From a virus (taxonomy: Duplodnaviria > Heunggongvirae > Uroviricota > Caudoviricetes), in the IMG/VR virus record IMGVR_UViG_2851938318_000001: a DNA stretch of 64,000 nt, one strand, 5' to 3'. The notes below the pieces were generated by a model. That model saw only the letters and a list, made by a program, of their open reading frames with translations, ran no database searches and was not told the DNA's origin. Below are positions 4,561-64,000 of this stretch, one piece after another. The position numbers and the translations under genes were made by a program. How positions within the stretch are numbered: position 1 is the stretch's first letter; each line of letters begins with the position of its first letter.

Positions 4561-4561
4561 G

Positions 4562-4831
4562 TCATCCTCTGCCAAATATTTGCATCAGTTGCTCTTTGGC
4601 GTCAGGGTCTGCCTTATCCTGGCTTGGATCGTAGACTTTATCTGTTACGACTGGTCTTCCAATCCTGAGTTGCAAACCCTCCATGAACGCCTTCACAGCC
4701 TCGCCATCCGCCTGGGACGCACGAGCGACTTGTAAGTTGCGGACATCCTCTTCCGCACGCAGACGGTCTATATTGCGACTGAGCATCCAGAACATCGTGA
4801 GAGGGATGTTCAATAGCTCTAATGGCGACAC
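4562..4831 (-). CDS. tail assembly chaperone, frameshift-extension ORF (gpT-like)
   Basis: ORF in alternate frame between chaperone and tape measure; classic G/GT arrangement; slip site not defined. Confidence 0.4.
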   Translation of the reverse strand: MSPLELLNIPLTMFWMLSRNIDRLRAEEDVRNLQVARASQADGEAVKAFMEGLQLRIGRPVVTDKVYDPSQDKADPDAKEQLMQIFGRG

Positions 4832-4911
4832 AGCGTAGTGAGCAACTACACGACTGAAATAGAATCCGAGATCTATTGAAACGGTCCTTGTCCCGGATTC
4901 ATCGCGGGAAA

Positions 4912-5229
4912 TTACTTTGCCCCTTCGCCAGCCGCTTTTTCGTTTTCTTCATCAATCACTTCCATAGCGAAGGTGAAGATCTGCTGGAGTTGCGGAACAG
5001 TCAGTTTTTCAAGAACTTCGTCAGGTACTGAAGGGATAACCTTACGAACCAGATCTGCATAAGCTGTCACTTGCTCAACAGGAGACATGTTCATGAGATC
5101 TTTACCTTCCATCTGCTTGATGGAAACGAACAGACCTACCGTCATTTCAACGATGGGATATTCCTGACCGCCAAATTTGATGCTTTTCTTCGGAGGCAGA
5201 ATGGAATCGAGATCGAGTAATTTGGTCAT
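4912..5229 (-). CDS. tail assembly chaperone (gpG-like)
   Basis: 105 aa acidic protein between major tail protein and tape measure. Confidence 0.5.
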   Translation of the reverse strand: MTKLLDLDSILPPKKSIKFGGQEYPIVEMTVGLFVSIKQMEGKDLMNMSPVEQVTAYADLVRKVIPSVPDEVLEKLTVPQLQQIFTFAMEVIDEENEKAAGEGAK

Positions 5230-5284
5230 TGGTTAAAATCCTTTTAAAAGAGAGGCCCATCCTGAGCCTCTGCTTAATTACTGA

Positions 5285-6067
5285 TTAATCTGCGGGGTTA
5301 ATCGTTACTGACTTAGTAGCCTTCTTAGAACCGCTATTGCTGGTGAAGGAGATGTTTGCAGTACCCTGCGCCACACCACGTACCAGACCCGTTTGATCTA
5401 CCGTGGCCTTTTCCTGGTCTTCGGATTCCCAAACACCGGTTTTGTCTGCGGCATCAGCTGGAGTGATTTCGGCTGTCAGTTGCACAGTTTCTCCAGCTTT
5501 TACGGTTGGAGATTCCGGTGTGATCGACACAGTTTTTACCGGTTTGGGACCGCTCATTTTGCCCAGAACGCCTTCATCATCCGGGTATGCGCTGAACTGA
5601 ACAGAGAACACACGAACATCATCAGACTGGTAGGTCATAGTGAAGTTGCCCGCGGTTGCCGCTTTCGGAATGGTCAACACATAGTCGGTGGTGTCCTGCG
5701 GAGTCAGAACCAGCTCCTTCGCCACATCGATCAGGTTGACGCCCTGTGCAGATGTGATCGTGACAGAGTTGTCATCTTCGCTCAGAGTAGAACCGGGCAT
5801 CAGGTCAACCATGTTTTGGAGTACAGACTCAGCCAGAGGCGCGGTGATGGTAATGTTGCGCCCCTGAACTAATTCGGAAATTACGGTCTGCCCCAACTGA
5901 TCGACGGTGACTTTCAGCGTTTCAGTGGCTACTTCAACCTGAACACCACCTTTGGTGTAACCCAAATCCACACCACCAAACGACACCTTACAGGCACCAA
6001 GTTTGATGTTTTTTACATGGGTATTAGACATTGATGGAAAACTCCTTTTTCCGTTAATTCTACGCAT
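5285..6067 (-). CDS. major tail protein with C-terminal Ig-like (Big_2) domain
   Basis: C-terminal segment TVSITPESPTVKAGETVQLTAEITPADAADKTGVWESED...ATVDQTGLV matches Big_2 pattern; position upstream of chaperones. Confidence 0.7.
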   Translation of the reverse strand: MRRINGKRSFPSMSNTHVKNIKLGACKVSFGGVDLGYTKGGVQVEVATETLKVTVDQLGQTVISELVQGRNITITAPLAESVLQNMVDLMPGSTLSEDDNSVTITSAQGVNLIDVAKELVLTPQDTTDYVLTIPKAATAGNFTMTYQSDDVRVFSVQFSAYPDDEGVLGKMSGPKPVKTVSITPESPTVKAGETVQLTAEITPADAADKTGVWESEDQEKATVDQTGLVRGVAQGTANISFTSNSGSKKATKSVTINPAD

Positions 6068-6105
6068 TCATTGCGCTAATGGTAAGTATATACTTACCTA
6101 TTGAC

Positions 6106-6612
6106 TTAATTCAATAAATAGCCAGCAAATTCAACAGGAATGCCTGCTTCTATTAATGCCCCATCATTTTTGGGATAAATGATTGGCATCGCCATCGGTC
6201 GTACAAGTCGAAAATAAACACCACCAGATTCCGTTTCCTCTACTGGAAACATCTCAATGATTTTATTGGCTTTCTCAACCGTCGTAGTAATTGACGAACC
6301 ACGCACAATGATTGTGAATGATTCGTGATAAAAGCCCTGTAGCTCATGATCGATGCAGATGCCGGTATTTGGGTTAATAAGCAAGACGCCAGATTTCACA
6401 TTGGCAGGCAAGTAGTGACAGAAAATGTCAGTCCCGACCGTGCCAATCTTTGCCTTCTGCATCAAACTTGCAAACGCTTCGATAAACACATTAACCTCTC
6501 GTAAAACCGGCTTTTCTGGCAGCCTCAAGAATCGCTTCTGAGAACTGCTTCTCGCTAATTTCCACCGCTCTTTCCAGAAAGTGTGGCCCAACACGAGGTT
6601 TAACACCGGCAA
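6106..6612 (-). CDS. tail completion / tail terminator-like protein (start probably internal)
   Basis: position in head-tail joining block; overlaps upstream ORF so true start likely a downstream Met. Confidence 0.35.
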   Translation of the reverse strand: MPVLNLVLGHTFWKERWKLARSSSQKRFLRLPEKPVLREVNVFIEAFASLMQKAKIGTVGTDIFCHYLPANVKSGVLLINPNTGICIDHELQGFYHESFTIIVRGSSITTTVEKANKIIEMFPVEETESGGVYFRLVRPMAMPIIYPKNDGALIEAGIPVEFAGYLLN

Positions 6613-6964
6613 TTGGTGGATTTGTCACGTTCTTCATTCGAGAAAGATAACCGAGTCGATATTTACCCAGCTCCATGTACTTAGCATAGTCACCTACTTC
6701 TACGCCCGGATGCCCCTGACGTGGTTTTGCTCCAGACACAGAAAGCTCAATGCGCAGCCCTGAATAACCTTCTTTAATCACCCTGGCAAAGATAGCTGTC
6801 TCCAGAGATCCGGTTTCCAGCGGAGCCATTGCACGGCTGAGACGCTCAACCAAACGCGCCAGCTTTTCCATGTCCCGAATAAGATATCGCTTAAATGCTT
6901 TCTGGCTGTTGTTGAGTCTATTCCCCGCACGTTTGAACTGATGCGCATCGTATTTCAGACCCAT
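6491..6964 (-). CDS. head-tail joining / neck protein
   Basis: co-directional ORF in connector block. Confidence 0.4.
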   Translation of the reverse strand: MGLKYDAHQFKRAGNRLNNSQKAFKRYLIRDMEKLARLVERLSRAMAPLETGSLETAIFARVIKEGYSGLRIELSVSGAKPRQGHPGVEVGDYAKYMELGKYRLGYLSRMKNVTNPPIAGVKPRVGPHFLERAVEISEKQFSEAILEAARKAGFTRG

Positions 6965-7395
6965 ATATTCGCCCCCACTTCAAGATGCCCAGGTCTTCCT
7001 CGTAGCCCCCAGCGACGATGAACACTGGACACCTTTAATTTTTGACCTTCAAGGATCAGCACATCATCAAGTTGTACAGCCGCTTCTAAAGGGACAACTA
7101 ACACAGCATCAAACAACTCCAGACTCGCCTTACCACGGCTACCAGAGCTATCAGCACGAACTGACGATTTCTCATTACTCTGTTCGAACTTAACCACGCC
7201 GACATTCGTCTTCCTGACGAATTGCAATTGCGCCTCGCCGTAAACGTTCTTTGCGCCAAAGCGGTAGATCGCAATTTCTGTTTGCCATGAAATATTCATG
7301 CTCTCTCCCTGTTGTTGTCGGTCGCTCTCATTACTGGCCAAAAACCATTTCGACCAAAAGTAAATAATGCGACTAGCGTTACGCACGGCGAACAA
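6955..7395 (-). CDS. head-tail connector protein
   Basis: co-directional overlapping ORF in connector block. Confidence 0.4.
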   Translation of the reverse strand: MFAVRNASRIIYFWSKWFLASNESDRQQQGESMNISWQTEIAIYRFGAKNVYGEAQLQFVRKTNVGVVKFEQSNEKSSVRADSSGSRGKASLELFDAVLVVPLEAAVQLDDVLILEGQKLKVSSVHRRWGLRGRPGHLEVGANIWV

Positions 7396-8212
7396 TCATA
7401 CGGTTGTTAATGTAACTGACCAGCAAGCGCCAGGTACTGCGAGCCACATGCACGTTTGCAGCTTTACCGGTACGGTACATGTTGGTTGTTTCACCGATGG
7501 ACTCTGACAAAATGCCATCTTCTCGTGCTGCGGCAACATCATTGCCATTTGCGATCTCACACGCTTCGTTGACAACGGCAAGCATCAACGCTTCTTTGAA
7601 GTAGTCAGGGAACTCTTCAAACTTCTCCTGCGTCATCTTTTCCCAATCGACTAAATCATGCCGGTACGCTCCGTCTGCTCCCCACGGAATGTCATACACA
7701 TTCAGCATATTTTGAGGGCGATCGTATCGGTCAAAGTCGATACGTAGAATTTTGCGGATTGAGAACGGTAAAGTTTTAATTCGTCTGGTAGCCTCAATGA
7801 GACGCTTGCGCATTAAGCCTTCACCATCCGACAGCAAAGTGTCCCCATTCAGCATATCGATCGCCTGCATTTGAGCATCAGCGACAGTTGCAAACGACTG
7901 TTCTGGTATCGACAGTTCAAAACTATTCAGCAGAACATACATTTGCCGCTCTTCATGCGTCAGACCCGATGCAACAGCCTTCACAATGACGTACCGCAGA
8001 TCGCGTTCTTTCTCAGAGAGCAGGTTATATTCAGCCGACACGACAACCGGAATCGACATTTGCCCGCTGGTAATTTCTAGCGGCTCGCCATCAACGAGAA
8101 TAGCCCCGGTGCTGTCCTTTACTGTGTAGGTGGCAGATTCGATATCCAGCACGTTGAAGGCAAATGAAAGAGAAACAGCTTCACCGCTACGATACGAGTC
8201 GATCTGCGCCAT
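7379..8212 (-). CDS. virion structural protein (head-tail region)
   Basis: 277 aa ORF, overlapping neighbours by a few bp. Confidence 0.4.
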   Translation of the reverse strand: MAQIDSYRSGEAVSLSFAFNVLDIESATYTVKDSTGAILVDGEPLEITSGQMSIPVVVSAEYNLLSEKERDLRYVIVKAVASGLTHEERQMYVLLNSFELSIPEQSFATVADAQMQAIDMLNGDTLLSDGEGLMRKRLIEATRRIKTLPFSIRKILRIDFDRYDRPQNMLNVYDIPWGADGAYRHDLVDWEKMTQEKFEEFPDYFKEALMLAVVNEACEIANGNDVAAAREDGILSESIGETTNMYRTGKAANVHVARSTWRLLVSYINNRMIVRRA

Positions 8213-8646
8213 TACTCACCGCCTTGTGCTTTCAGGATGCCTTCAATCATCTCGACAATTCCTTTCGCTTTAACACCAACCTGATTACCAATAACTCGTA
8301 GACCGGCAATACCTTCGTTGTCTGCAATGGACTCCAGCTCTTCTCGTGTGAAAGTCTGGATCTGTTTGGCCGGTTCATCTGGTGTCCCACGTTTCATTGG
8401 CACAATGTCAGGCGCTACTGGCTCTGTAATCAGGTCTGCGGCCAATTCACCACGATCACTGTATGCGGCAGATGGGGAAACATTTTTTCCCTCTACTGTT
8501 GACGCTCGCATTGATGCACAAATTCTCTGCTGATCGATAAAAGGCAACTCCGCTACGGATACCCCGTTCTCGAACTGAACGCCGCACAGCATTCCCGAAT
8601 AACCGGAAAATTGCGGTTCTAATAAAACAATTTTTGCTGGTTTCAT
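8212..8646 (-). CDS. head completion / adaptor-like protein
   Basis: 144 aa ORF between Ig-like protein and connector genes. Confidence 0.4.
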   Translation of the reverse strand: MKPAKIVLLEPQFSGYSGMLCGVQFENGVSVAELPFIDQQRICASMRASTVEGKNVSPSAAYSDRGELAADLITEPVAPDIVPMKRGTPDEPAKQIQTFTREELESIADNEGIAGLRVIGNQVGVKAKGIVEMIEGILKAQGGE

Positions 8647-8690
8647 AACGCTTTCTCTCCACTTGGGCGGCTTTCGCCGCCCAATATCGG

Positions 8691-9611
8691 TTATTCCTGT
8701 GCGGCAGTGACCTCTACGGTCGCTGTCGCTTTGTGGCTACCATCTTGTGTAGTAACCTCGATTGTGGCAGTGCCAGCCGCAACACCAGTTACAACACCGG
8801 TTTCGCTGTCCACCGTTGCAAACTCGGTATTTTTGGATTCCCAAGTAACGGTTTTATTTGTGGCTCCTACCGGCTCGACATTTGCGGTCAGCTGAACAGT
8901 TTTGTTTGCCTCAACGGTTGTGCTATTTGGGTCGATTTCGACACCAGTAACAGCCACAACAGGCGCAGTTACTTCCACCGTTGCAGTTGCCTTTTTGCTG
9001 CCATCTTGGGAAACGATCTCAATCGTCGCAGTGCCAACTTCTACACCAGTTACGTTCCCGCTCTGGTCTACCGTTGCCTTATCTTCATTTTTGGAAGACC
9101 AGGTAACAGCCTTATTCGTCGCATTTGACGGCTGAACATTCGCTTTCAGACTGACTGATTTTCCTTTCTCAACAGAGGTTGAGTCTGGCGTTACCGTTAC
9201 GGATTGAACGGCTACCGGATTTACGGTGACTTCCACTGAAGCGGAAAGCTGGGTTTCCTGATCAGTTGCAGTAATTTTTACTTTGCCTGGGGCTACGCCA
9301 GTTACTAATCCAGTGCCGTTAACGGTTGCAATTTGATCATTGGCTGACTTCCAGGTGAATGAACTGGCACTCTTACCCATAGTAATACCTGCACTAAGTT
9401 GAACAGTTTTCCCAACCAAAACTGACGGTGAAGCCGGGGTTATGTTTACGGATTGGGAGAAGGGAACCGCCTGCAAACAAGCAGATAGCTGACTTTGTTG
9501 TCGCTCGGTTAAAGGTTCATCGGAGATAGAATTGGTAAATCCGGCACGGCACATATGCCCCGTAAAATCCGAAAATGCCTCTTCCGTAATCTTCATCTTT
9601 TGTTCTGGCAT
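8691..9611 (-). CDS. Ig-like (Big_2 x3) virion decoration protein
   Basis: three tandem Big_2-like repeats (e.g. VTVTPDSTSVEKGKSVSLKANVQPSNATNKAVTWSSKNEDKATVDQSGNVTGV). Confidence 0.6.
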   Translation of the reverse strand: MPEQKMKITEEAFSDFTGHMCRAGFTNSISDEPLTERQQSQLSACLQAVPFSQSVNITPASPSVLVGKTVQLSAGITMGKSASSFTWKSANDQIATVNGTGLVTGVAPGKVKITATDQETQLSASVEVTVNPVAVQSVTVTPDSTSVEKGKSVSLKANVQPSNATNKAVTWSSKNEDKATVDQSGNVTGVEVGTATIEIVSQDGSKKATATVEVTAPVVAVTGVEIDPNSTTVEANKTVQLTANVEPVGATNKTVTWESKNTEFATVDSETGVVTGVAAGTATIEVTTQDGSHKATATVEVTAAQE

Positions 9612-9614
9612 TTC

Positions 9615-9645
9615 TCGCTCCTACAAAAAGGGTGGGCGTATAGCC
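9615..9645 (-). terminator. strong rho-independent terminator downstream of capsid gene
   Basis: aaaaa-gggtgggcgtatagcccaccc. Confidence 0.65.
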
Positions 9646-9684
9646 CACCCTTTAACATAGATAATTACTTATCTACTGCACTGA

Positions 9685-10560
9685 TTAAATTTTTACATTG
9701 GTCAGTGCAGCGATAGCCTTATCGTGCTTATTCGCCAGAGAGCAGTACCACTTCACACGGGTACGTACTGCGTCTTTGTTCTGTACAGTACCAATGTTTT
9801 CAACAACGATACCTGCGTTGTCGCCGCCATACAGACCAGTAACGCCGTTCTCTTCTGACAGATGCAGGCAGTAGATGCTTGCTTTGCCAGAATCGGTCGG
9901 GATGAAGTCGTTGATGATGAACGGAACGCCGTTGTGACACAGCATCGGACGACCGAAGTTCTCCATCATGATTTCAGACGGACCTACGTTTACTGTACGC
10001 AGCAGCGCACGGTAAGCACGCAGGTGCTCTGAACGCATCATGATGCAGTCAGCACCAAGATCTTTCACCGCATCGACCAGTTCGTCGAACATGGAGAAAG
10101 TCATAGATGCACCTGCGATGTCGATCTTCTGATCTTCATGCATCAGGCGTGGAATACCGTCGAACGCTTTGTTGTTGGAGCTGGAGTCACCCAAAATCAG
10201 GTTGCGGCGGAACGCACGAGCCAGACCTTTAACTTTCTGACGAACCTGAATAGCCAACTGGTTATTGGTGTCGGCCATAGTGGTTGCCAGGAATTTATCA
10301 ACGTCTACGTCACCAGCCAGAATACGCAGTTTCGCAACGCATTCTTCGAAGGTTGCTGCACCTTCAGGGATGGTGTCGTTAACGTCGATGAAGGTAGCTT
10401 CACTCAGCGTTTTTTCACGGTTGTACAGATATGCCTTTGAATTAATTTTCATAAAAGGCAAGATGGCAAACAGGTCATCGCGATCGATGATAGTTTCGAT
10501 CACACCCTGTTCAAGTTCGTTGTTAGACAGCTTTTCAGCTTCTTCACGCAGTAATGGCAT
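9685..10560 (-). CDS. major capsid protein (putative)
   Basis: 291 aa ORF between scaffold-like gene and decoration protein; strong terminator downstream. Confidence 0.5.
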   Translation of the reverse strand: MPLLREEAEKLSNNELEQGVIETIIDRDDLFAILPFMKINSKAYLYNREKTLSEATFIDVNDTIPEGAATFEECVAKLRILAGDVDVDKFLATTMADTNNQLAIQVRQKVKGLARAFRRNLILGDSSSNNKAFDGIPRLMHEDQKIDIAGASMTFSMFDELVDAVKDLGADCIMMRSEHLRAYRALLRTVNVGPSEIMMENFGRPMLCHNGVPFIINDFIPTDSGKASIYCLHLSEENGVTGLYGGDNAGIVVENIGTVQNKDAVRTRVKWYCSLANKHDKAIAALTNVKI

Positions 10561-10585
10561 CTATCAATTCCCTTTGATTTAGATG

Positions 10586-11473
10586 TTACTTAAGTCCAAT
10601 TTTCCCCAGACCGGAGGCCAACTTATCCATAGTCGACTTGTTCTTCGGTTGGGATATTGTGTAGGTCGATTTGGAATGTGAGCCTACACCCTGCTTGGCT
10701 TCGCTACGCATCAATGCGTCAGCTTCCGGATCTGCCCGCACAATGCGTTCAATCGCGGATTCAAACGGCAACGGCTTACCTTCACCGTCAACCAGAACAG
10801 CTCGTTCTTTATGACCTGCCGGTTTGTCATAACCCACTACGCTACCGTCTTCACCCACTTCAAAATGAGAACCGTAGATCACGCGGGCTTTTGCCGGAGT
10901 CATCAGAACTTTGTCACGTAGGAAGAGAGAGTTACTGAAGGAAGCGCCCACGGTCATCTCGACTAATTGAGATTTCAGTGATGCGTTTTCACTTTCCAGT
11001 GCTGCATAACGTTCGTCACGCTGTGCCAGCTCTGCCTGGTGTGCTTCGATCATCTGTTTTTTAACAGCATCGAACTCACCACGACGCTCCAGTTCAGCTT
11101 GCTCCGCCTCACGACGTGCATTTTCTGCGGCCTGTTCAGCTTCTAAAAGCTGGCGAGCACGCGCCGGGTCGATATCACCGTACTGAGCAAGCTGATCGGC
11201 CAATGTGCGCTCTTTCTCTTTGCGCTTCATGTTCTCTTTCAGCAGTTCAGCACCAGCTTTCTTGGTTTTACGAAGTTCGGCCAGTAACTCTTCATGAGTC
11301 ATGCCAGCGTATTCGTCATCACCCTTCGGCTGCTCTTTTTGTTCACCCTGTTTGTCAGGATTTTGTGTACTCTGCTCATTATCAGCAGCTACACCGCCAG
11401 CGCCTCCACGCTCATGCGCTTCAGCAACATTCATCAGACCACGACGGGCCAAAAGCATTTGCCACAGTTTCAT
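10586..11473 (-). CDS. scaffolding protein (putative)
   Basis: charged, coiled-coil-rich (AELLKENMKRKEKERTLADQLAQ...) protein between portal and capsid. Confidence 0.45.
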   Translation of the reverse strand: MKLWQMLLARRGLMNVAEAHERGGAGGVAADNEQSTQNPDKQGEQKEQPKGDDEYAGMTHEELLAELRKTKKAGAELLKENMKRKEKERTLADQLAQYGDIDPARARQLLEAEQAAENARREAEQAELERRGEFDAVKKQMIEAHQAELAQRDERYAALESENASLKSQLVEMTVGASFSNSLFLRDKVLMTPAKARVIYGSHFEVGEDGSVVGYDKPAGHKERAVLVDGEGKPLPFESAIERIVRADPEADALMRSEAKQGVGSHSKSTYTISQPKNKSTMDKLASGLGKIGLK

Positions 11474-11494
11474 AAAAATTCCCTTTGTTACTTA

Positions 11495-13069
11495 TCACTC
11501 GTTCTCTTGAGTAGATGAGTCCCCATTCCCTCGGGGTTGATCTTGCCCGCTTTCTTGGGCCGCGCCTTGATCATAAGTAAGTACTGACTTATTTTCAAGG
11601 GTATTTAGATCATTTTTTGGCGGAAAATTCAAGAGATCTTTATCAAATTCCTTCTTCATCGCCTCAGTGATGTTCGGGAAAATCTTCTCAATAAGCATTT
11701 CCATCTGGTGACGACGTACAGAGTCCGGTGCCTGGAGTAATGACAGTTTCTCGGCAACAGAAAATTCATCAGTAAGGCCACGAATATCAAAACTTTCTGG
11801 ATACGCAATTAAAGAGTGGTCTTCGTCCAGATCTACCCCCATCCATTTCGCAACCAGTAGCATGATTTGGCGTTCAGCCCTTTCCAGACGCTCTGCTTTT
11901 GTGACAAGCAAGCTATTTACACGCTGGAAGTCATACATTTTTGCGGCACCAGATGAGTTATCGATTCCCTGTGCGTTGTCCTGCTTCGTTCGCTCACCAG
12001 CTACACCAACTGAATGGTAGATTTCGTTAATCACCGTCTTAATCGTAGTGATGATCATCTGAGCTTGTTTCGGGTCTGGTGACAGATAAAACGGCTGGTT
12101 TCCACCTTCAGAATCGTAGGTGAAGACTCGCTTTGTGCCCATTTCAAGCACTTTAGTGTGGTTTTCATCACCAGGTAAAAGCGACTGTACCGGTATAGCC
12201 AACTGGCTAAATGTCTGATCCTGAATAATGGCATCAAGGTTTGACAGATAGTTTGCAACCGCACGATCAAGATAAGCGATATCATCGATCAACGATGGGC
12301 TGAAATACGGTGATTCGCTTTCTCCAATACAATCAACAGGAAACACAGGAACTACGCCGAGATTATGCGCACCGCTATCCTCTAAAATAACTTTTGCCTG
12401 ACGGCGACCTGCTCCACCAGCGCCCTTCTTCACTTCCTCACGGAACAGATACCACTCGTTTTGTGTCCACAGACGATAACGTTGGTATTCCTGACCTGTA
12501 GAAGTAAAAGGATCTGCGTCATCACGAGCGACTTCCACAATTAACGCCCACAACATATTCCCGTCGTCGTCCCATGCCACATCCAGCATTTGCTGAGGTG
12601 AAATCCAGTAGGCGTAGGCGCGAGCATCTTTCTTTTTCTCGTCAGCTACTGACTCAACATCACCACTCATCGTGCTATCGACAACAACCCATATGCGACC
12701 GTAAATAGACGACTGCAAATCAATAGCGGCCATAAATGAGTCAATAGAGGCATTCTGGCGGGTCGCACGTTTCCAGAAATTGCGGATCTGCTCTGGTGCC
12801 TCTTCGATATTTCTATGAATGTCTTCTTTAAAGAGATATTTGTTGATGAGGTTTACCACCTCACGAGTGTGGTTGAAGCGATAAGCACGCTCAACTCGCT
12901 CCTTAAACTCCTGATCTCCCTCTTTAAAGTAACGAAAGATATTGTCTGTAAACCAACCACGCCCGCCAGCGTAAGTGCTGGCGAGGAAGTCCCAATGTTC
13001 TTTTTTCTTTTCGTATTCCGGGTGGCGTCGCGCCACCAGATCCTTAATTTGTTTGTCGTTCAATTCCAT
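11495..13069 (-). CDS. portal protein
   Basis: 524 aa ORF directly downstream of terminase large subunit, acidic C-terminus. Confidence 0.65.
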   Translation of the reverse strand: MELNDKQIKDLVARRHPEYEKKKEHWDFLASTYAGGRGWFTDNIFRYFKEGDQEFKERVERAYRFNHTREVVNLINKYLFKEDIHRNIEEAPEQIRNFWKRATRQNASIDSFMAAIDLQSSIYGRIWVVVDSTMSGDVESVADEKKKDARAYAYWISPQQMLDVAWDDDGNMLWALIVEVARDDADPFTSTGQEYQRYRLWTQNEWYLFREEVKKGAGGAGRRQAKVILEDSGAHNLGVVPVFPVDCIGESESPYFSPSLIDDIAYLDRAVANYLSNLDAIIQDQTFSQLAIPVQSLLPGDENHTKVLEMGTKRVFTYDSEGGNQPFYLSPDPKQAQMIITTIKTVINEIYHSVGVAGERTKQDNAQGIDNSSGAAKMYDFQRVNSLLVTKAERLERAERQIMLLVAKWMGVDLDEDHSLIAYPESFDIRGLTDEFSVAEKLSLLQAPDSVRRHQMEMLIEKIFPNITEAMKKEFDKDLLNFPPKNDLNTLENKSVLTYDQGAAQESGQDQPRGNGDSSTQENE

Positions 13070-13095
13070 TTGAATAACCTTAGATAATTACTTAC

Positions 13096-14352
13096 CTATC
13101 GAGAACCACCAAGAATAACACGGTTTTTGACTGGATACCTACGATGTACTGGATAGCCCAATGCGTCTGCACTATGCTCAATGCCACCTGTCTTATCCAT
13201 ATCTCGTGTTCCAGGCTTGTAGATGACCTTTTCCAGTGAATCAATCAAATGCTTGCACTTCGGATCGATATACAGCCGGATATCTCCAGATGCGGTCATC
13301 AGCATTCGGTTAACAGCATTAACACGATCCGCAATTGGCGGGTGCTTTTTCGAATAATCGACACGTAAGAATCCCTTCTCTTTGAATATGTCTACGTCAG
13401 ACTCCCCGCGAGCATGTTGGCGATAAGCACCTGCCGGATCTGGAAATACCGTTATCTGTGATTTCCAGCGCCAGAAGCGCCTCTCAAGCTCATCACAAAC
13501 CTCTGCCGTGTTAGAGGAAAAGAGCACCAATTCATCAATTGCCCATAGCTCACCATTTGGCTGAGGTTGCAAAATTACGGAAGACATCGGGTCAATGTTG
13601 AAGTCCTGTCCTACCCATATAGGCAACCGAGGGTTGAACTGAAGCGGTTTAACATGCACGTTTCGATCGAACGGGTAGTAAACGCGCCCGGACATATTTT
13701 CAAAGCTGGCCAGGTACTCCTGAGCGAACGATTTAGGGTCCATATCGTTCTTAGCAGCTTCAATTTCCGCCGTAGGCACAAACGGCGAATCAGCAGTTAC
13801 AAACTGCCAGCTCTTCCACTGTCCCTTTCTTTGCAGCTCTACGTTCTGGCCTATAGTCCACAGTTTGTGAAATTCCGAGAAGCCTTTTGGCGTACCAATA
13901 ATCAGTGCACCGCCGCGTGTCGATGAAAGAGTAGGTCGTAACACCTTGTACCAGGTGTCAGCCTTCATATCCTGAAATTCATCAAGCACTACAAAATGCA
14001 ACGCTACGCCGCGCAGAGTGTCAGGTTTATCAGCTCCTTTGAGGGCGATCTCCGAACCGTTCTTCAACACGATTGTCATCGTGGTGTCGTTCTTTTTCCT
14101 AACCCACTTACGGGGCAGAACTTCCTGTAGATCGTCCCACAAAATCTGGCGAGCCATCTGGTAAGTAGGAGCGACATACCAGACCCTTTGCTTTTTTTCC
14201 TTTGCCGCCGCACGAATAATAGTGGAGATCGACAACCGGGATTTTCCCCAGCGTCGACCAGCACAAACAACTTTAAATCGATGCGGAGACTGGAAGACTT
14301 TCATCTGTCCAGAATGCAGTTGCACAAGACTGAGCGAGGACGGGATTGCCAT
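13096..14352 (-). CDS. terminase large subunit
   Basis: Walker A CAGRRWGKS, Walker B VVLDEFQD; start overlaps TerS stop. Confidence 0.85.
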   Translation of the reverse strand: MAIPSSLSLVQLHSGQMKVFQSPHRFKVVCAGRRWGKSRLSISTIIRAAAKEKKQRVWYVAPTYQMARQILWDDLQEVLPRKWVRKKNDTTMTIVLKNGSEIALKGADKPDTLRGVALHFVVLDEFQDMKADTWYKVLRPTLSSTRGGALIIGTPKGFSEFHKLWTIGQNVELQRKGQWKSWQFVTADSPFVPTAEIEAAKNDMDPKSFAQEYLASFENMSGRVYYPFDRNVHVKPLQFNPRLPIWVGQDFNIDPMSSVILQPQPNGELWAIDELVLFSSNTAEVCDELERRFWRWKSQITVFPDPAGAYRQHARGESDVDIFKEKGFLRVDYSKKHPPIADRVNAVNRMLMTASGDIRLYIDPKCKHLIDSLEKVIYKPGTRDMDKTGGIEHSADALGYPVHRRYPVKNRVILGGSR

Positions 14353-14984
14353 TATTCGTCCTCCCCTTCACTTCCATCATCTGTCGCATCAAATTCGCTT
14401 AGAGCTTCTTCTTCCAACGTCTCAAGCAATTCGTCATCGATGATTTCAGGCTCGTCGTCTTCCTGACGTAATTTCGCCACCTGGGAAGGCGTAAGCTCAC
14501 CAAATACCAGGTTCGGAATTTCTTCCTCGTCATTTTCCGCATGATCCATGCCCAATGCTTTGGACGAAACTTCAAAGCATTTTGCAAGGGTATTACTGGC
14601 TCTCTGTAAGCTCTTGAGAGAACCCTCAATCGCCCCTAAAGGCTTACCCTCACGTTTGGCCGTAGTGACTTCGACCATCACCATCTGCCCCAACGCATAC
14701 GCCCAGCCGTCATAACGTGTACGACGTTCTTCTATCTTTTCCGCACGGGCTTTAGCGCGAAGCTCTGCGTCAGATTTAAGAGACTCACGAACCATCTTCC
14801 CAACAGAGTCCGCGCCTTTCTCTAATCCTCGCTTTTTGAAATGTCTGGAGAGTGTTTCACGACGAATGCCGTACTCTTCCTCCAGCTTTGAGAGTGTATA
14901 TTCGCCTGACGTCCATTTGGCTTCAGCTTCGGCCCACTCCGCTGGTGTCAGGCGAGTTTTTACCTCGTCTTTTTCGACAGTCAT
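14352..14984 (-). CDS. terminase small subunit (putative)
   Basis: 210 aa with N-terminal HTH-like region and acidic C-terminus, immediately upstream of TerL. Confidence 0.55.
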   Translation of the reverse strand: MTVEKDEVKTRLTPAEWAEAEAKWTSGEYTLSKLEEEYGIRRETLSRHFKKRGLEKGADSVGKMVRESLKSDAELRAKARAEKIEERRTRYDGWAYALGQMVMVEVTTAKREGKPLGAIEGSLKSLQRASNTLAKCFEVSSKALGMDHAENDEEEIPNLVFGELTPSQVAKLRQEDDEPEIIDDELLETLEEEALSEFDATDDGSEGEDE

Positions 14985-15182
14985 AGATCCCTCTAAAACA
15001 CACAGAGCGCGTCCATGCGCTCTAAAACAACTTGTTTACTGCATCTGCTAACCAACTTGTTTTCTGGTGTGTCTAATTAGGTCTGGGCATGTCTTACTAA
15101 GCCTGCTTCTGTATATATATTTAATAAGTTACTTATTATTTATATATACAGAAGCAGGTCTTTAAATAACGTCCCAGACCGA

Positions 15183-17011: not shown

Positions 17012-17709
17012 GCAGCCATCTCCCCGGAAGAGATCTTCTCCGCATATGCCACAAATGCGTCTACCCCGCTTTCTCCCGTCATTTCTTCCATATGGGCAAG
17101 CAAATCACCAACAACAATGGCAGAGCCAGCAGGGAGCGTTTTAAAGCCCAATACGTCGACAACACGTACTTCTTCCGCTGCAACTTCACGACTGATCTCG
17201 GTGTGTTCATCCTTCTGTCGTTTAGTTTCTTCGCCAAGATCGATAACTAGCGAGTCGGTGTCCATTTCTTCTGTCATACTGCCAACGAGAACATTCAACT
17301 CACGCTCTTCAAAGCCGAAAACCTCGATATCGTCCAGAACAAGCGACTCAAGCTCTTTCTGTAGCTTAATTGCATCGTAATCAATGCTGGCAAGTCGGTT
17401 ATCTTCAAGGCGCTTCGCACGAACCTCGTCATCACTGAGATCATCGCGAACAATAACCGGTACGCGCTCAAGTCCAGCAAAAATTGCAGCCTCACGGCGG
17501 CCGTGGCCAGTAATAATTACGTCGTTCTTATCGACCGTAATTGGCTGGTCAAATCCGCGCTTTTTAATGGCTGCGGCCAGATCTCGGATCTGCTGTTCAT
17601 CATGCTTTTTGGCATTCATCTCATAGGGAATAAGATCTGCCGGGTCGCGATATACGATTTCAAACTTTTTGGTCATTACATACGCTCCTTGTAGTAGTCG
17701 ACCAGCCAC
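17008..17709 (-). CDS. ParB-like nuclease domain protein
   Basis: ParB/Srx motif ITGHGRREAA; 4-bp overlap with downstream ATPase gene. Confidence 0.55.
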   Translation of the reverse strand: MAGRLLQGAYVMTKKFEIVYRDPADLIPYEMNAKKHDEQQIRDLAAAIKKRGFDQPITVDKNDVIITGHGRREAAIFAGLERVPVIVRDDLSDDEVRAKRLEDNRLASIDYDAIKLQKELESLVLDDIEVFGFEERELNVLVGSMTEEMDTDSLVIDLGEETKRQKDEHTEISREVAAEEVRVVDVLGFKTLPAGSAIVVGDLLAHMEEMTGESGVDAFVAYAEKISSGEMAA

Positions 17710-18374
17710 ACCAGAGCCTCACCAGCGTTCTCCATTTCATTACCGGTGTTAATAGCCTGCTCTTTGATGATGTTTTTTATGGTTTCTGCAACACGATCTG
17801 ACGCATCGAAAGTTACTTTGAAGCGCATGGTCTGATGTTCCGCCCCCACACGTTCGGTTTTCTCTCGTTTGTCGGTATCGACAGGCTCATCACTACCACG
17901 AGACAACGCCTCCAGTGCTTCAAGGTCGATTGCCGCCTCTTTTGCTAAAACCATCGAGATTTCGTCGTCATACGGGGCGATTTCAGACAGTTGATAGTCA
18001 AGTTCTGACTGAATTTCTTCAATGAAGCGTTGCAATGCGATTTGGTCGTCTTCACCGTATCGCTCGTTGTCCACCAGTGACATCTGTTTAGCTACGACAT
18101 CGCTAATTTTGCCCACAGAAAGCACCGGAACCGTTGAAATTCCTTGCTCAATAGCAGCACGCCAGCGATGTTCGCCGCCGAGGATTTCAAAAAATCCATC
18201 TTCAAGTTCACGAGCCAAAATTGGCTTAAAAAAGCCCAATTTTTCGATAGAACCTTTCAGTTTTTCAAAATTCTGCGCACCAACCGAATTGGTGTTCCAG
18301 GTATTCGGGCGAAGGTTGGCAACATCAACCTGCAAAATCGTGATTTTTACATCCATTTTATTGCTACAATCCAC
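17676..18374 (-). CDS. ParB-like nuclease domain protein
   Basis: ParB box ILGGEHRWRAA; ORF-track start is GTG at 18374, internal ATG at 18356. Confidence 0.55.
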   Translation of the reverse strand: MDCSNKMDVKITILQVDVANLRPNTWNTNSVGAQNFEKLKGSIEKLGFFKPILARELEDGFFEILGGEHRWRAAIEQGISTVPVLSVGKISDVVAKQMSLVDNERYGEDDQIALQRFIEEIQSELDYQLSEIAPYDDEISMVLAKEAAIDLEALEALSRGSDEPVDTDKREKTERVGAEHQTMRFKVTFDASDRVAETIKNIIKEQAINTGNEMENAGEALVWLVDYYKERM

Positions 18375-18438
18375 TAAGTAATTACTTACTTATTATAATA
18401 GCCAAATAACATACAAAAGGCACTAAGGAAAGAGGTTT

Positions 18439-19998
18439 ATGACTGTTCGGATTGTATCTAACGCAGTAAATGCGCTTATTTCTGGCGCAGATGACAAGGT
18501 AAAGCAACTGGTGCAGCAAATGTTGAGCTACGAAGTCGAGACTGGCGACTGGAAGGGCACAAGCACGATGTTCAACTGGAGTAAAAACTCGTTCCCTGCT
18601 GGCTTTGCCAAGCCTGTAGCAGCGAACTTGAACAAGGCGGGCATCAAATGTGTTCATATCCGCAAAGACAAAGCCCCGGCGCTTGGTAAACCAAATCCGG
18701 CGGTTAACCCATTCCCATACAATCCTGATTATGCGTATCAGGATCAGACTGTGGAAACACTGGTTCGAGAGGGAATGATGATTGCGCAGATCGCTACTGG
18801 TGGCGGGAAATCTAATGTTGCCTGCAAAGCAGCTGCACGTATCGGTCGAATGACATTATTTTTAACAACCCGCTCTGTTCTGATGTTTCAGATGGCCGAA
18901 AACTTCCAGAGATCCATCGACTACCGCGCCGAAAATGGCGAACCGTGGTTAAAAGACCAAAAGGTTGGAGTAATTGGCTCGGGTGAGTTCCAGGTATCAC
19001 GACATATCAACGTCGCTACAGTTCAAACTCTTGCAAGTTTCCTTGAAGAACCACCACGCGATGCAACTCCAGATAAGAAAAGCTACCACCTCAAACGTCG
19101 GGAGTTGGTGAAACGCTTCCTTTCAAGTGTCTCTCTTCTTATTCTGGAAGAGGCGCATGAGTCTTCAGGCTCTAATTTCTATGACATTGCCAGATTATGT
19201 GCGAACGCAGACTATCGCCTGGCGCTTACGGCAACGCCGTTCATGAAGGATTCTACGGAAGCCAACATGCGTCTGATGGCTGTAGCCGGGCGAATTGAAA
19301 TAAAAGTCACGGAAAAGTACCTGATTGATAGAGGAATTCTGGCAAAGCCATACTTCCTTTATCATAAAGTTGCCTACAAACCGGACGAGGTCAGAATCAA
19401 GGCAGAACTTGCTAACAAACACCTCAATTTTAGAGTAGGTATGAGCACTGCCTACCAAAAGGCTTATCAGTTGGGGATCGTGTATAATTTGGGACGTAAC
19501 GAGGCCATTGTGCGCGAAGCATTGCTCTATAAGCAACACTCTCTCAACTGCATGACTCTGGTTCGTCTTAAACGCCACGGGCAAATCCTGATGGAGATGA
19601 TGAAGGAGTCCGGTCTTAGAGTTGACTTCATCTATGGGGAATCGAACCAGGCGACAAGGCAAGCAAAGCTGAACAGTTTAGCGTCTGGTGAAATAGATGT
19701 TTTAATAGGCTCGACTATTCTGGATGTCGGTGTTGATGTGCCAAGCGTTGGTGCGGTCATTCTTGCTGGTGGCGGGAAAGCAGAAGTTGAAATGAGACAA
19801 CGTGTCGGTCGTGGCTTACGAGCCAAGAAGAATCAGGCAAACGTGTGTTTTATCACTGATTTCATTGACATTAGCAACAAATACCTGTTGTCTCACTCTT
19901 ATGAGCGAAAACACATCATCGACACTACACCTGGCTTTGCAGAAGGTGTATTGCCAATTGATGGCACATTCGATTTTGGAGTTCTGAAACGAGATTAG
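18439..19998 (+). CDS. superfamily-2 helicase (DEAD/SNF2-like)
   Basis: motif I IATGGGKS, motif II LILEEAH, motif VI QRVGRGLRA. Confidence 0.75.
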   Translation: MTVRIVSNAVNALISGADDKVKQLVQQMLSYEVETGDWKGTSTMFNWSKNSFPAGFAKPVAANLNKAGIKCVHIRKDKAPALGKPNPAVNPFPYNPDYAYQDQTVETLVREGMMIAQIATGGGKSNVACKAAARIGRMTLFLTTRSVLMFQMAENFQRSIDYRAENGEPWLKDQKVGVIGSGEFQVSRHINVATVQTLASFLEEPPRDATPDKKSYHLKRRELVKRFLSSVSLLILEEAHESSGSNFYDIARLCANADYRLALTATPFMKDSTEANMRLMAVAGRIEIKVTEKYLIDRGILAKPYFLYHKVAYKPDEVRIKAELANKHLNFRVGMSTAYQKAYQLGIVYNLGRNEAIVREALLYKQHSLNCMTLVRLKRHGQILMEMMKESGLRVDFIYGESNQATRQAKLNSLASGEIDVLIGSTILDVGVDVPSVGAVILAGGGKAEVEMRQRVGRGLRAKKNQANVCFITDFIDISNKYLLSHSYERKHIIDTTPGFAEGVLPIDGTFDFGVLKRD

Positions 19999-61318: not shown

Positions 61319-62358
61319 AAAATATCCAATTTGCTCAGATCAAATCCGCCGTCAGTATCGTGGACAATCTTGCAATAAGCAGATACCGACTCTCCCAGGC
61401 TATCGATTTTGCTGGTTTCAGTTGTGCTGGCTGTCCCTTCCATCATTGATGACTTACGGATGAAGTTGCACACGACACCTTTTGCACCCATTGTTTTGAG
61501 GATGTTCTGGTACTTAATGCCTTCTTCATCGTTCTCAATTACGGCGCGGAAACGCACGTAGTTGCCGCGAATTTGGTCATCAGCAACATCATCTTCCAGG
61601 TTAATGAATTTAGGCGCACTGGTTTCGTAGTGACTGAAACTGCCGTCCGGGTTTACGATCATGTAGCCAGCCAGAGATCCAACATCTCCCCAATTTTGAT
61701 GAGTCAGTGCACCGACACTGATAACTCCAGGAATGACCTCTTTGTGGTTGTGGTAATGCCCACTAAGCACGAGACGAAAGCCGATATCCTTTAACTCCTG
61801 CGCATCGATACCGACGTCAGGCATTGTTGGAATGGCTTTGTTAATGGATGTATGGATAACAACGTCATGATTATCACCTTCTACGCTCTTACGTAATGCT
61901 TTCAGATCGCTGATAAGCTCCGCATGATTGTTACGCCAGCTAATCAGGTGGACAGTCACATCACCAATTTTTATTGAGTGTGGGCGCTTGCCACATACGA
62001 TTACCACGCCGATAGAACTCAGCGATGCTGCTGCGTTGGCGCTATATACTGAATCGTTGGTTTCAAGATCGTGATTACCGGCCAGCATTACTACTGTCAG
62101 ATCAAGCTCGTTGATAATCCACTTGTACGTTTCAGTTACGTAATGCAAAACAGAAGGGGACACAGTTCCTCGGACGTGAAATGTATCACCGGCAACCAAC
62201 ATGTACTTACAACCGGCCTTCTTCATGGCGATGGCTGCTTCTTTCGTTGCTTCCAACTGTATTTCAAGTCTGGAGTTAAGCCCCTCAGCGTTCGTCGTGG
62301 AGAACGCATCCCATTTGTGGTAGTGGCAGTCAGAAATGACGCCGTATGGCAAAGTCAT
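61273..62358 (-). CDS. SbcD/Mre11-like nuclease (calcineurin-like phosphoesterase)
   Basis: metallophosphatase motifs DCHYH, GDTFH, GNHD; paired with SbcC-like gene. Confidence 0.8.
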   Translation of the reverse strand: MTLPYGVISDCHYHKWDAFSTTNAEGLNSRLEIQLEATKEAAIAMKKAGCKYMLVAGDTFHVRGTVSPSVLHYVTETYKWIINELDLTVVMLAGNHDLETNDSVYSANAAASLSSIGVVIVCGKRPHSIKIGDVTVHLISWRNNHAELISDLKALRKSVEGDNHDVVIHTSINKAIPTMPDVGIDAQELKDIGFRLVLSGHYHNHKEVIPGVISVGALTHQNWGDVGSLAGYMIVNPDGSFSHYETSAPKFINLEDDVADDQIRGNYVRFRAVIENDEEGIKYQNILKTMGAKGVVCNFIRKSSMMEGTASTTETSKIDSLGESVSAYCKIVHDTDGGFDLSKLDILCQEILTEAESSEAV

Positions 62359-62612
62359 GTGTTTTTCCTTTGTGGTTATTTTGATACAAATTCTAAGAGC
62401 AATGAGGAGGTAAACAACTATGCATAACGGTATGTTAGGAATGAAACGAGCGCCTTAATATACAAAATTTATAAGTAAGTATATACCTATTTATCGTGGC
62501 GCAACTTTGCTTGTCTGTATGACTAAAAATAAGACTGGATCACTGTAGAACGCTATGAGAGCTATTTTGAGGGGGCGTAGATTCTATCTACGCCAATATA
62601 CGATCTGGAGGG

Positions 62613-63257
62613 TTACAGCGCGTCAGTGGGCTTTTTACGCGCTGCATTTATGCTTATGACGCCAGCTTTAGGACGTGGATCGACAAGGTTCAGTTCTTCT
62701 TCGCTATGGTATTCAAGGTCGAACTCACGTTTTACATGTCTGATGTAGATTGCAGTGAGCAGGCTATCTTTGGTCAGGAAGTGTCCGTAGGATTTGCGGA
62801 TCACTTCTTCAACCTTCTCGATTTTCTCACCACCCATGCAGAGGTGATTAAACCGGCTGTGTTTCCGCAACATCTCGTCAACTGGGCCTGAGTAAACCTT
62901 GTCTACTTTCCCAAAACGAATGATTTTTCCTGTATCTGCGGATACAAGGCAAATCAGTTTGTCTGGTGATAAACGATCTCGCCACGTTACTCCTGAACGG
63001 AGTGTGTTGAAGTAGGGCGCATCCAATCCGATGATCGGTTTACGAAATGCGAGCAATGGAACGTACCTGATACAACTATTCAAATGAAAGTTCACACCAG
63101 CCTTATCAAGTTTAATTCTGGTTTCGTAGATCGGGCACTTCGCCGCTATACCGCAGATATCACAAAGTAACTTCTGCTTATTCAGGTTGGAATTTGATTC
63201 GATAGTGTAGGAGCCGTCCTCAAGACGACGAACCCAGCGCGTGCGTTTTAGATCCAT
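62613..63257 (-). CDS. hypothetical protein with CxxC...C cluster, adjacent to origin-like repeats
   Basis: 214 aa; CDICGIAAKC motif; start faces the iteron region. Confidence 0.4.
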   Translation of the reverse strand: MDLKRTRWVRRLEDGSYTIESNSNLNKQKLLCDICGIAAKCPIYETRIKLDKAGVNFHLNSCIRYVPLLAFRKPIIGLDAPYFNTLRSGVTWRDRLSPDKLICLVSADTGKIIRFGKVDKVYSGPVDEMLRKHSRFNHLCMGGEKIEKVEEVIRKSYGHFLTKDSLLTAIYIRHVKREFDLEYHSEEELNLVDPRPKAGVISINAARKKPTDAL

Positions 63258-63344
63258 AATCGTTTTTTCAGTAGTTATTGGCCGATGCTACGATAACTCA
63301 TTAGGCATACCTTAATCTGCATTTGCCTGTTTTACTTATCCCAG

Positions 63345-63420
63345 TTATCCACTGGATAGATCCAAATAAGAGATCCCAAGTAAGATCAAATAGAAGATCC
63401 AAAGAGATCCCCGATCGCCT
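63345..63420. repeat. DnaA-box-like site plus phased AAGAGATCC-type repeats (about 11 bp period)
   Basis: ttatccact at 63345; taagagatccc / aagtaagatc / aatagaagatcc / aaagagatcccc. Confidence 0.5.
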
Positions 63421-63454
63421 CTAGCCGTTGCGGTTACTGGTCTGAAAGGGTGTT

Positions 63455-63565
63455 GCCATCCACTATGGAGAGCAAAGAAACCTCTGTAGAGAGCTGAATA
63501 ACCGCTATGAAGAGTAAAACAACCACTCTGGAGAGCTGTATATATCCACTGTAGAGAGTAGAGCA
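63455..63565. repeat. iteron array 1 (5 x about 21 bp, core AWCCRCTRTRGAGAG)
   Basis: atccactatggagagc, aacctctgtagagagc, aaccgctatgaagagt, aaccactctggagagc, atccactgtagagagt. Confidence 0.75.
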
Positions 63566-63730
63566 CATTGTCTTTTATGGATAACTTAATGACTTAATTC
63601 TTCATTAACATACTGATATACATAGATATATTTTAAACTCTACTCTTAGTCATGATTCTTATGTCCTTAAATATCCACAGAAGAGTAGAGTTACCTGTTC
63701 TTGAAATCCTCTGATTTTTATCCACAGGCC
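63566..63730. promoter_or_regulatory. AT-rich spacer with DnaA boxes (origin-like)
   Basis: TTATCCACA at 63718-63726, ATATCCACA at 63673-63681, tatggataa at 63576; inverted agagtagag repeats. Confidence 0.55.
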
Positions 63731-63734
63731 CGAT

Positions 63735-63800
63735 CCAGTAATTCAGATCACAAAGAGAACCAAAGAGACCCATAAAGACCCAATAAGATCCCCGCCCACC
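63735..63800. repeat. second set of phased AAAGAGAMC repeats
   Basis: caaagagaacc / aaagagaccc / ataaagaccc / aataagatcccc. Confidence 0.5.
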
Positions 63801-63838
63801 TCAAACCGTTGTGCCATCTGCCTTCAGACATGATCGAT

Positions 63839-63962
63839 ATCCACTATAGAGAGCGAATAATCCACTATAGGGAGCAAAGCAACCACTATAGAGAGGAGAA
63901 AAACCACTATAGACGGTAGGATAACCGCTGTGATGAGTGCTACTATCCACTGTAATCAGCAA
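63839..63962. repeat. iteron array 2 (6 x about 21 bp)
   Basis: atccactatagagagc, atccactatagggagc, aaccactatagagagg, aaccactatagacggt, aaccgctgtgatgagt, atccactgtaatcagc. Confidence 0.75.
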
Positions 63963-64000
63963 AGGCCACCAAAGCCGTCGAATAACAAGAGACATTTGGA

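Follow-up and report, generated by a model that had tools for sequence, protein, structure and literature searches.

A very probable plasmid-maintenance origin of the P1 oriR kind, with its unit in tandem duplicate, beside repA in an SSU5-like phage genome

Why should a phage genome carry, at one edge, two tandem arrays of short direct repeats that resemble the replication origin of a plasmid? The question is raised by the last part of a 64,000-nucleotide stretch of viral DNA (hereafter, the window), in which two tandem modules at 63336-63963 lie between a minus-strand open reading frame (62613-63257) and the window end. Both modules are built in the same order, from one or more DnaA boxes through short GATC-type repeats and a G+C-rich spacer to five or six iterons. 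The initial annotation had read this architecture as an iteron-controlled theta origin and had suggested that the element is a phage-plasmid. Our comparison of the sequence with its relatives leads to a closely similar view, namely that the region is very probably the plasmid-maintenance origin of an SSU5-like phage-plasmid, of the P1 oriR and RepFIB kind and served by a Rep_3 initiator.

The identity of the element is the firmest part of this answer. Escherichia phage Cyrano (OV696614) matches the 701 bp at 63300-64000 with 100% identity, and window positions 1-15118 are 98% identical to the Cyrano tape-measure, terminase, and connector genes. At an identity of at least 99%, 63300-64000 was found in 61 plasmid records, from E. 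coli and E. albertii, and many of the matches are circular plasmids of ~106-126 kb. At ~82% identity over 97% of its length, the same sequence is present in Salmonella phage SSU5, Y. pestis pMT1, and S. Typhi pHCM2, and numerous plasmids of Enterobacter and Citrobacter also match at this level, for a total of 283 plasmid records. Inspecting the source assemblies for a circular or extrachromosomal form had been proposed as a check on the phage-plasmid idea, and the matching records are indeed circular plasmids: the origin sequence is carried by 90 of 5,426 complete E. coli genomes, always in a plasmid record and never in the chromosome. The annotation of Cyrano includes ParA, RepA, holin/endolysin, and tail genes, so that siphovirus structural and lysis genes are combined with plasmid replication and partition genes in circular plasmid records, as in SSU5-like phage-plasmids. 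Together with the complete identity to Cyrano/pLF82, this bears out the suggestion of a phage-plasmid.

Such an element is not new. Cyrano is pLF82 of strain LF82, an SSU5-like phage-plasmid (PMC9928086; PMC2941450) for which a plasmid copy number of ~5.5 and the formation of siphovirus particles are reported (PMC9928086). The SSU5 group is an established phage-plasmid group (PMC7969092), and databases used for plasmid typing include SSU5 Rep genes (bioRxiv 10.1101/2025.09.12.675607). Routine plasmid typing reports a replicon named 'pLF82-PhagePlasmid', given as IncFIB(pLF82-PhagePlasmid), and the MOB-suite type of the matching plasmids is IncFIB. The element is, therefore, already known, as are its RepA and its replicon type (pLF82/Cyrano, the SSU5 group, and IncFIB(pLF82-PhagePlasmid)), and the finding is an ordinary one because the replicon is already a typing target. 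In the public records that we examined, however, no feature is annotated over the origin itself, which is why the correct flagging of a phage genome as also a plasmid matters for annotation.

Several other features of these elements were observed along the way. The RecA-like gene of Cyrano-type elements (L001:10984-12701 / L020:40066-42405) is 2,340 bp long, compared with 1,077 bp for its SSU5 homologue, and PGAP annotates it as a LAGLIDADG homing endonuclease, which suggests an intein or a homing-endonuclease insertion. Cyrano also has genes of its own for DNA polymerase III alpha, a helicase, a primase, and a ligase (L020:31758-35264, 17113-19716), and its lytic replication is for this reason probably independent of the RepA origin. 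Within the window, a gene-free gap of 254 bp (62359-62612) separates an SbcD-like gene from the phrog_2105 gene at 62613-63257. A GNAT acetyltransferase gene occupies this position in SSU5, pHCM2, and the Klebsiella relatives, accompanied in SSU5 and pHCM2 by a second small gene, making this an indel hotspot beside the origin.

Which protein would act on the iterons? The Rep gene was expected either just beyond the window or in the window's last gene, and the first of these expectations held. In every matching record (L001, L002, and L003 among them), a Rep_3-family repA coding sequence begins at the first base after position 64000. Positions 63964-64000 (+) form its leader, with the repA ATG following directly past the window end; the window stops at repA because many plasmid records start there. 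The predicted RepA protein is 351 aa long and matches Pfam Rep3_N (E = 1.3e-10) and Rep3_C (E = 1.3e-4), both past the cut-offs; searches of solved structures and of NCBIfam gave no match. It shares 47.5% identity with P1 RepA, 61-66% with the classical IncFIB Rep found on thousands of plasmids, and 69-76% with the Rep of Pantoea and Rahnella megaplasmids. The other candidate, the CxxC protein encoded at 62613-63257, is the product of the nearest gene inside the window, and this gene is oriented divergently from the origin. The protein nevertheless falls in phrog_2105, a family of unknown function, and shows no Rep signature, only a sub-threshold ASCH match (E = 0.15). In addition, the Pantoea and Rahnella plasmids lack its gene next to this origin, and a bona fide Rep_3 RepA is encoded immediately on the origin's other side. 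That the CxxC protein is the initiator for these iterons is, in our judgment, vanishingly improbable.

The iterons themselves are the most distinctive signal of the region. They are 19-bp repeats with the consensus ATAACCACTATAGAGAGCA, and all 11 are on the plus strand, 21-23 bp apart. A position weight matrix (PWM) built from these 11 repeats was scanned over the 64 kb on both strands; the 11 iterons scored 20.8-27.8 bits, compared with 11.2 bits for the best other site in the window. A repeat search recovered matching iteron families, offset by 373-381 bp from one unit to the other. The two arrays of five to six iterons at a period of ~21 bp that had been noted at the outset are thus present, with five iterons in module 1 and six in module 2. 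With the same PWM, 12 further iterons of at least 14.9 bits were detected downstream of repA (L001 7759-8240), six on each strand and irregularly spaced, against 0.7 hits per 12.7 kb in shuffled sequence, and a weak iteron-like site of 12.2 bits lies within repA (L001 7552-7570). The same 19-bp repeat is, therefore, found on both sides of repA.

The DnaA boxes carry a different kind of information. Over the 64-kb window, exact boxes are not enriched (4 found vs 2.75 expected), and since this count is at chance level, we rejected DnaA-box enrichment as evidence on its own. The weight of the boxes would instead come from their position and conservation. The exact and near-exact boxes of the initial annotation can be located as an exact TTATCCACA at 63718 and three one-mismatch sites at 63345 (+), 63671 (+), and 63576-63584 (-). 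The pattern TTATNCACA is kept across relatives despite base changes, and we regard the sites that carry it as predicted DnaA sites. A search of 62000-64000 for structured RNA returned no Rfam match at E <= 1.

Module 1, the unit distal to repA, opens with a tandem pair of DnaA-box-like 9-mers, TTATCCCAG and TTATCCACT (63336-63353, +), which together read CTTATCCCAGTTATCCACT. The second box is TTATTCACA, an exact match to TTATNCACA, in SSU5, pMT1, pHCM2, pLAO4, and Pantoea vagans. After the boxes, at 63358-63416, come AGATCC-type repeats at intervals of 7-13 bp, which contain six GATC (Dam) sites (63359, 63372, 63384, 63396, 63406, and 63413). This density, 6 in 58 bp, compares with five annotated Dam sites at the equivalent place in P1, and 5-6 GATC are found in module 1 of all nine two-module loci. 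A G+C-rich spacer (63407-63455; 37-47% A+T in the duplex-stability profile) leads from the GATC repeats to the five iterons at 63456-63562 (+), which start at 63458, 63479, 63500, 63521, and 63544. These score 22.3-27.8 bits with the PWM, show a TRF period of 21/42, and are conserved in SSU5, pMT1, and pHCM2. An open reading frame on the minus strand (63345-63566) overlies the module 1 iterons and spacer, and was taken as probably spurious.

A key finding from the comparison is that module 1 aligns with P1 oriR feature for feature. The P1 record (AF234172) annotates oriR as five RepA iterons together with a DnaA-binding site and five Dam sites. It places the repA promoter within the final iterons of this set, and nine incA iterons downstream of repA. 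The DnaA site, Dam sites, G+C spacer, and five iterons all find their counterparts in module 1. The annotated DnaA-binding site of P1, CTTATCCACATTATCCACTGGATAGATCC, aligns with CTTATCCCAGTTATCCACTGGATAGATCC of module 1, the G+C-rich spacers of the two origins align with each other, and the left ~30 bp are nearly identical (CTTATCCACATTATCCACTGGATAGATCCAA in P1 vs CTTATCCCAGTTATCCACTGGATAGATCCAA in module 1). We infer that the GATC cluster of module 1 is the homologue of the heptamer/Dam-site cluster of P1 oriR and, by analogy, the likely site of strand opening and SeqA control. This likeness also calls for a revision of how the short repeats were first described. Phased repeats are present in both modules, as had been claimed, but they are of the GATC heptamer type seen in P1 oriR and not classical A-tracts; their spacing is 7-13 bp in module 1 and 10 bp in module 2. 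The alignment of module 1 with an annotated oriR, together with the adjoining Rep_3 repA, argues in favor of an iteron-controlled theta origin.

The same evidence bears on whether the repeats could be something other than an origin. Direct-repeat arrays occur in centromeres too, and the initial annotation had named a partition centromere or a packaging (pac/cos) site as the reading that would overturn its own. We consider either one very unlikely indeed. The unit is homologous to P1 oriR and not to parS, and the 19-bp repeat flanks repA instead of par genes, none of which lie beside the repeats; the ParA of Cyrano is annotated ~31 kb away. With respect to packaging, the terminase is at the opposite end of the window, and megaplasmids of Pantoea and Rahnella carry the same unit with its Rep, the few kb examined around these replicons having no annotated phage genes.

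Module 2, the unit proximal to repA, repeats this plan with some changes. Its exact DnaA box, TTATCCACA, is located at 63718-63726 (+). In SSU5, pMT1, pHCM2, and pLAO4 the box is TTATACACA, which still satisfies TTATNCACA; two Pantoea plasmids show one mismatch in the box, and it has been lost in Pantoea BRR-3P and in Rahnella. The phased repeats that follow (63731-63791) keep GATC only at 63732, 63746, and 63787, and the strict 10-bp series at 63746-63791 reads AGATCA, AGAACC, AGACCC, AGACCC, and AGATCC. SSU5, pMT1, and pHCM2 share these GATC-less variants without change, and the module 2 phased repeats of relatives hold 2-4 GATC. A G+C-rich stretch is again found between the phased repeats and the iterons, of which there are six at 63837-63963 (+; starts at 63839, 63860, 63881, 63902, 63923, and 63945), with PWM scores of 20.8-27.4 bits and a TRF period of 21. 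Here, too, a minus-strand open reading frame (63801-63995) overlies the iterons and was taken as probably spurious, as is probably the small open reading frame over the iterons and spacer of pLAO4 (L009:2634-2975, -), annotated as a hypothetical protein.

Module 2 also holds, between its last two iterons, an extended -10 sequence, TGcTACTAT (63938-63946, +), that we propose as the candidate promoter of repA. The motif TGnTAnTAT is present in 8 of 8 divergent two-module loci aligned, and no such conservation is seen at the corresponding junction of module 1. The annotated PrepA of P1 likewise lies inside the repA-proximal iterons. In a generic promoter scan, the extended -10 at 63938-63946 was not among the listed sites.

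The two modules are joined by the AT-rich spacer already noted in the initial annotation (63563-63708), which reaches 83% A+T in this element; in the duplex-stability profile, no duplex of the region is less stable than 63570-63640, which ranks in the top 1% of the window. The spacer contains a one-mismatch DnaA-like box on the minus strand (TTATCCATA, 63576-63584), an IHF-consensus match (63606-63618, -), and a degenerate iteron/DnaA-like site (63668-63685) with the one-mismatch box at 63671 (+). This degenerate site is flanked by an exact 12-bp inverted repeat (AACTCTACTCTT / AAGAGTAGAGTT, 63636-63647 / 63681-63692) that is specific to the Cyrano lineage. Among relatives, the spacer is the least conserved part of the origin region. 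Two candidates within it were rejected: a conserved A+T-rich unwinding element, as the A+T-richness is not kept in SSU5, pMT1, and pHCM2, and a promoter-like site, TTAACA-16-TATATT, which is not kept in the same three relatives. The IHF match and the inverted repeat are also not conserved there, and were for that reason given no role.

Taken by its sequence, then, the region is a tandem duplication of one oriR unit with a period of ~373-381 bp. How widespread is this duplication? When the 900 bp upstream of rep were compared in 18 loci, two units were present in nine (Cyrano, SSU5, pMT1, pHCM2, pLAO4, three Pantoea, and one Rahnella) and a single unit in the other nine, namely P1, SJ46, classical IncFIB (two E. 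coli and one Salmonella), IncFIB(K), an Acinetobacter venetianus plasmid, and the Klebsiella and pSTEC409 SSU5-like lineages. The two-unit arrangement is thus conserved from the megaplasmids of Pantoea and Rahnella to the phage-plasmids SSU5, pMT1, and pHCM2. No description of a duplicated oriR unit was found in the literature searched, a search that did not extend to the classical pMT1 and RepFIB papers.

The two copies have not been conserved in the same way. In all nine two-unit loci, module 1 keeps a DnaA box with 0-1 mismatch. In Cyrano, the left part of module 1 is 91% identical to the single-unit origins of P1 (over 77 bp) and of Klebsiella (over 90 bp), and that of module 2 is 77% identical to each. 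The order is reversed within the SSU5 clade, with left parts 90-91% identical in module 2 vs 85-87% in module 1. Module 2 is clearly functional, and is the more conserved copy within this clade.

What each unit does is a finer question, on which the sequence comparisons leave us more divided. Our confidence is roughly evenly balanced as to whether the distal unit is the origin core, with the proximal unit mainly providing the repA promoter/operator and an extra RepA-binding array, two roles that a single P1 unit unites. In favor of such a split are the GATC sites and DnaA box kept by module 1, its closeness to single-unit origins, and the extended -10 conserved in module 2 only. A fuller account is plausible, if a little short of probable: an ancestral P1-like oriR was duplicated, the distal copy serving as the Dam/SeqA-controlled core and the proximal copy as the repA promoter/operator, perhaps also acting as a methylation-insensitive second origin or as an in-cis handcuffing partner.

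The assignment could also be reversed, such that module 2 is the working origin and module 1 an accessory array for RepA titration or handcuffing, corresponding to incA but on the upstream side. In P1 and in all single-module relatives the origin unit lies directly upstream of repA, where module 2 is found, and module 2 holds the only exact DnaA box of the region and the better conserved left part within the SSU5 clade. Indeed, with this consensus box and this conservation, module 2 may itself be an origin. However, in every clade it lacks most of the GATC sites, and its box is the one lost in Rahnella and Pantoea BRR-3P, whereas the full P1-like feature set is found in module 1 everywhere and module 1 is the closer of the two to single-module origins. 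Moreover, an array used purely for titration would need neither DnaA boxes nor GATC repeats. A reversal of roles, therefore, seems unlikely to us.

Alternatively, both modules could be independent origins that respond to one RepA, one of them sensitive to Dam/SeqA and the other largely insensitive. In each, a DnaA box is accompanied by phased repeats and a complete set of iterons, and compared with the spacer both show purifying selection; the module 2 repeats without GATC show strict conservation and not random decay. Yet the DnaA box of module 2 has been lost in two lineages, and a conserved promoter would be sufficient reason for the conservation of this module. We regard the existence of two independent origins as doubtful, and in what follows we retain the distal unit as the presumed core and the proximal unit as the presumed promoter/operator.

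By analogy with P1 and RepFIB, replication from such an origin would begin with the binding of RepA monomers to the iterons and of host DnaA to the boxes, and the duplex would open in the adjacent GATC-repeat region. Re-initiation would be timed by Dam methylation and by SeqA binding at the GATC sites. RepA bound to the repA-proximal iterons would repress its own promoter, and the 12 iterons downstream of repA would pair with the origin iterons (handcuffing), such that copy number is limited. Part of this scheme is as P1 is said to work in the accounts of Chattoraj, of Abeles and Austin, and of Brendler et al. Against this background, the duplicated unit is possibly a natural case of origin and operator separating after duplication, which would be an incremental point. 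In addition, the duplicated origin could help in designing curing or incompatibility cassettes directed at replicons of the pMT1/pHCM2 type.

Set beside known systems, the whole replicon (ori unit 1, spacer, ori unit 2, repA, and an incA-like array) is most readily compared with that of P1 (IncY). The order of elements is the same through repA to a downstream iteron array in two orientations, the 12 downstream iterons match P1 incA in position, and both elements are phage-plasmids. On the other hand, P1 has one oriR unit and 9 downstream iterons, whereas two units and 12 downstream iterons are present here, and P1 is a myovirus whereas the present element is an SSU5-like siphovirus. The iterons are alike in spacing but unlike in sequence (GATGTGTGCTGGAGGGA in P1, ATAACCACTATAGAGAG here), and RepA specificity and incompatibility would be expected to differ accordingly.

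RepFIB (P307, F, pO157) has the closest widespread Rep, and a DnaA box and five GATC sites lie upstream of it, as here. In RepFIB, the upstream iterons are origin-associated and the downstream iterons limit copy number by handcuffing (PMC11983097). Classical RepFIB differs in having a single upstream unit, with iterons of the GATAAGCTGT type, where the present element has two.

Closer still are SSU5, pHCM2, and pMT1, which share the same two-module origin at ~82% identity and of whose group the present element is a member. The Klebsiella pKPHS1-type and pSTEC409-type SSU5-like lineages have a related origin with a single module and the iteron GTATGCTGTCAGCGGT. In plasmids of these two lineages, a 'RepB family' coding sequence (L007:2659-3876, L008:2636-3850) reads through the five origin iterons; its start, ~120 bp upstream of the likely ATG (L007 2779, L008 2756), has probably been mis-called.

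Finally, the same two-module origin and iteron type are found on megaplasmids of Pantoea and Rahnella (e.g., pPV989-167), which are 163-468 kb in size (L010:2490-3100, L013:830-1500, L016, and L019); in Pantoea vagans, module 2 has more GATC than here. The occurrence on these megaplasmids of a two-unit origin, together with a Rep at the 69-76% identity given above, suggests that this replicon has moved between ordinary plasmids and phage-plasmids of the SSU5 type.
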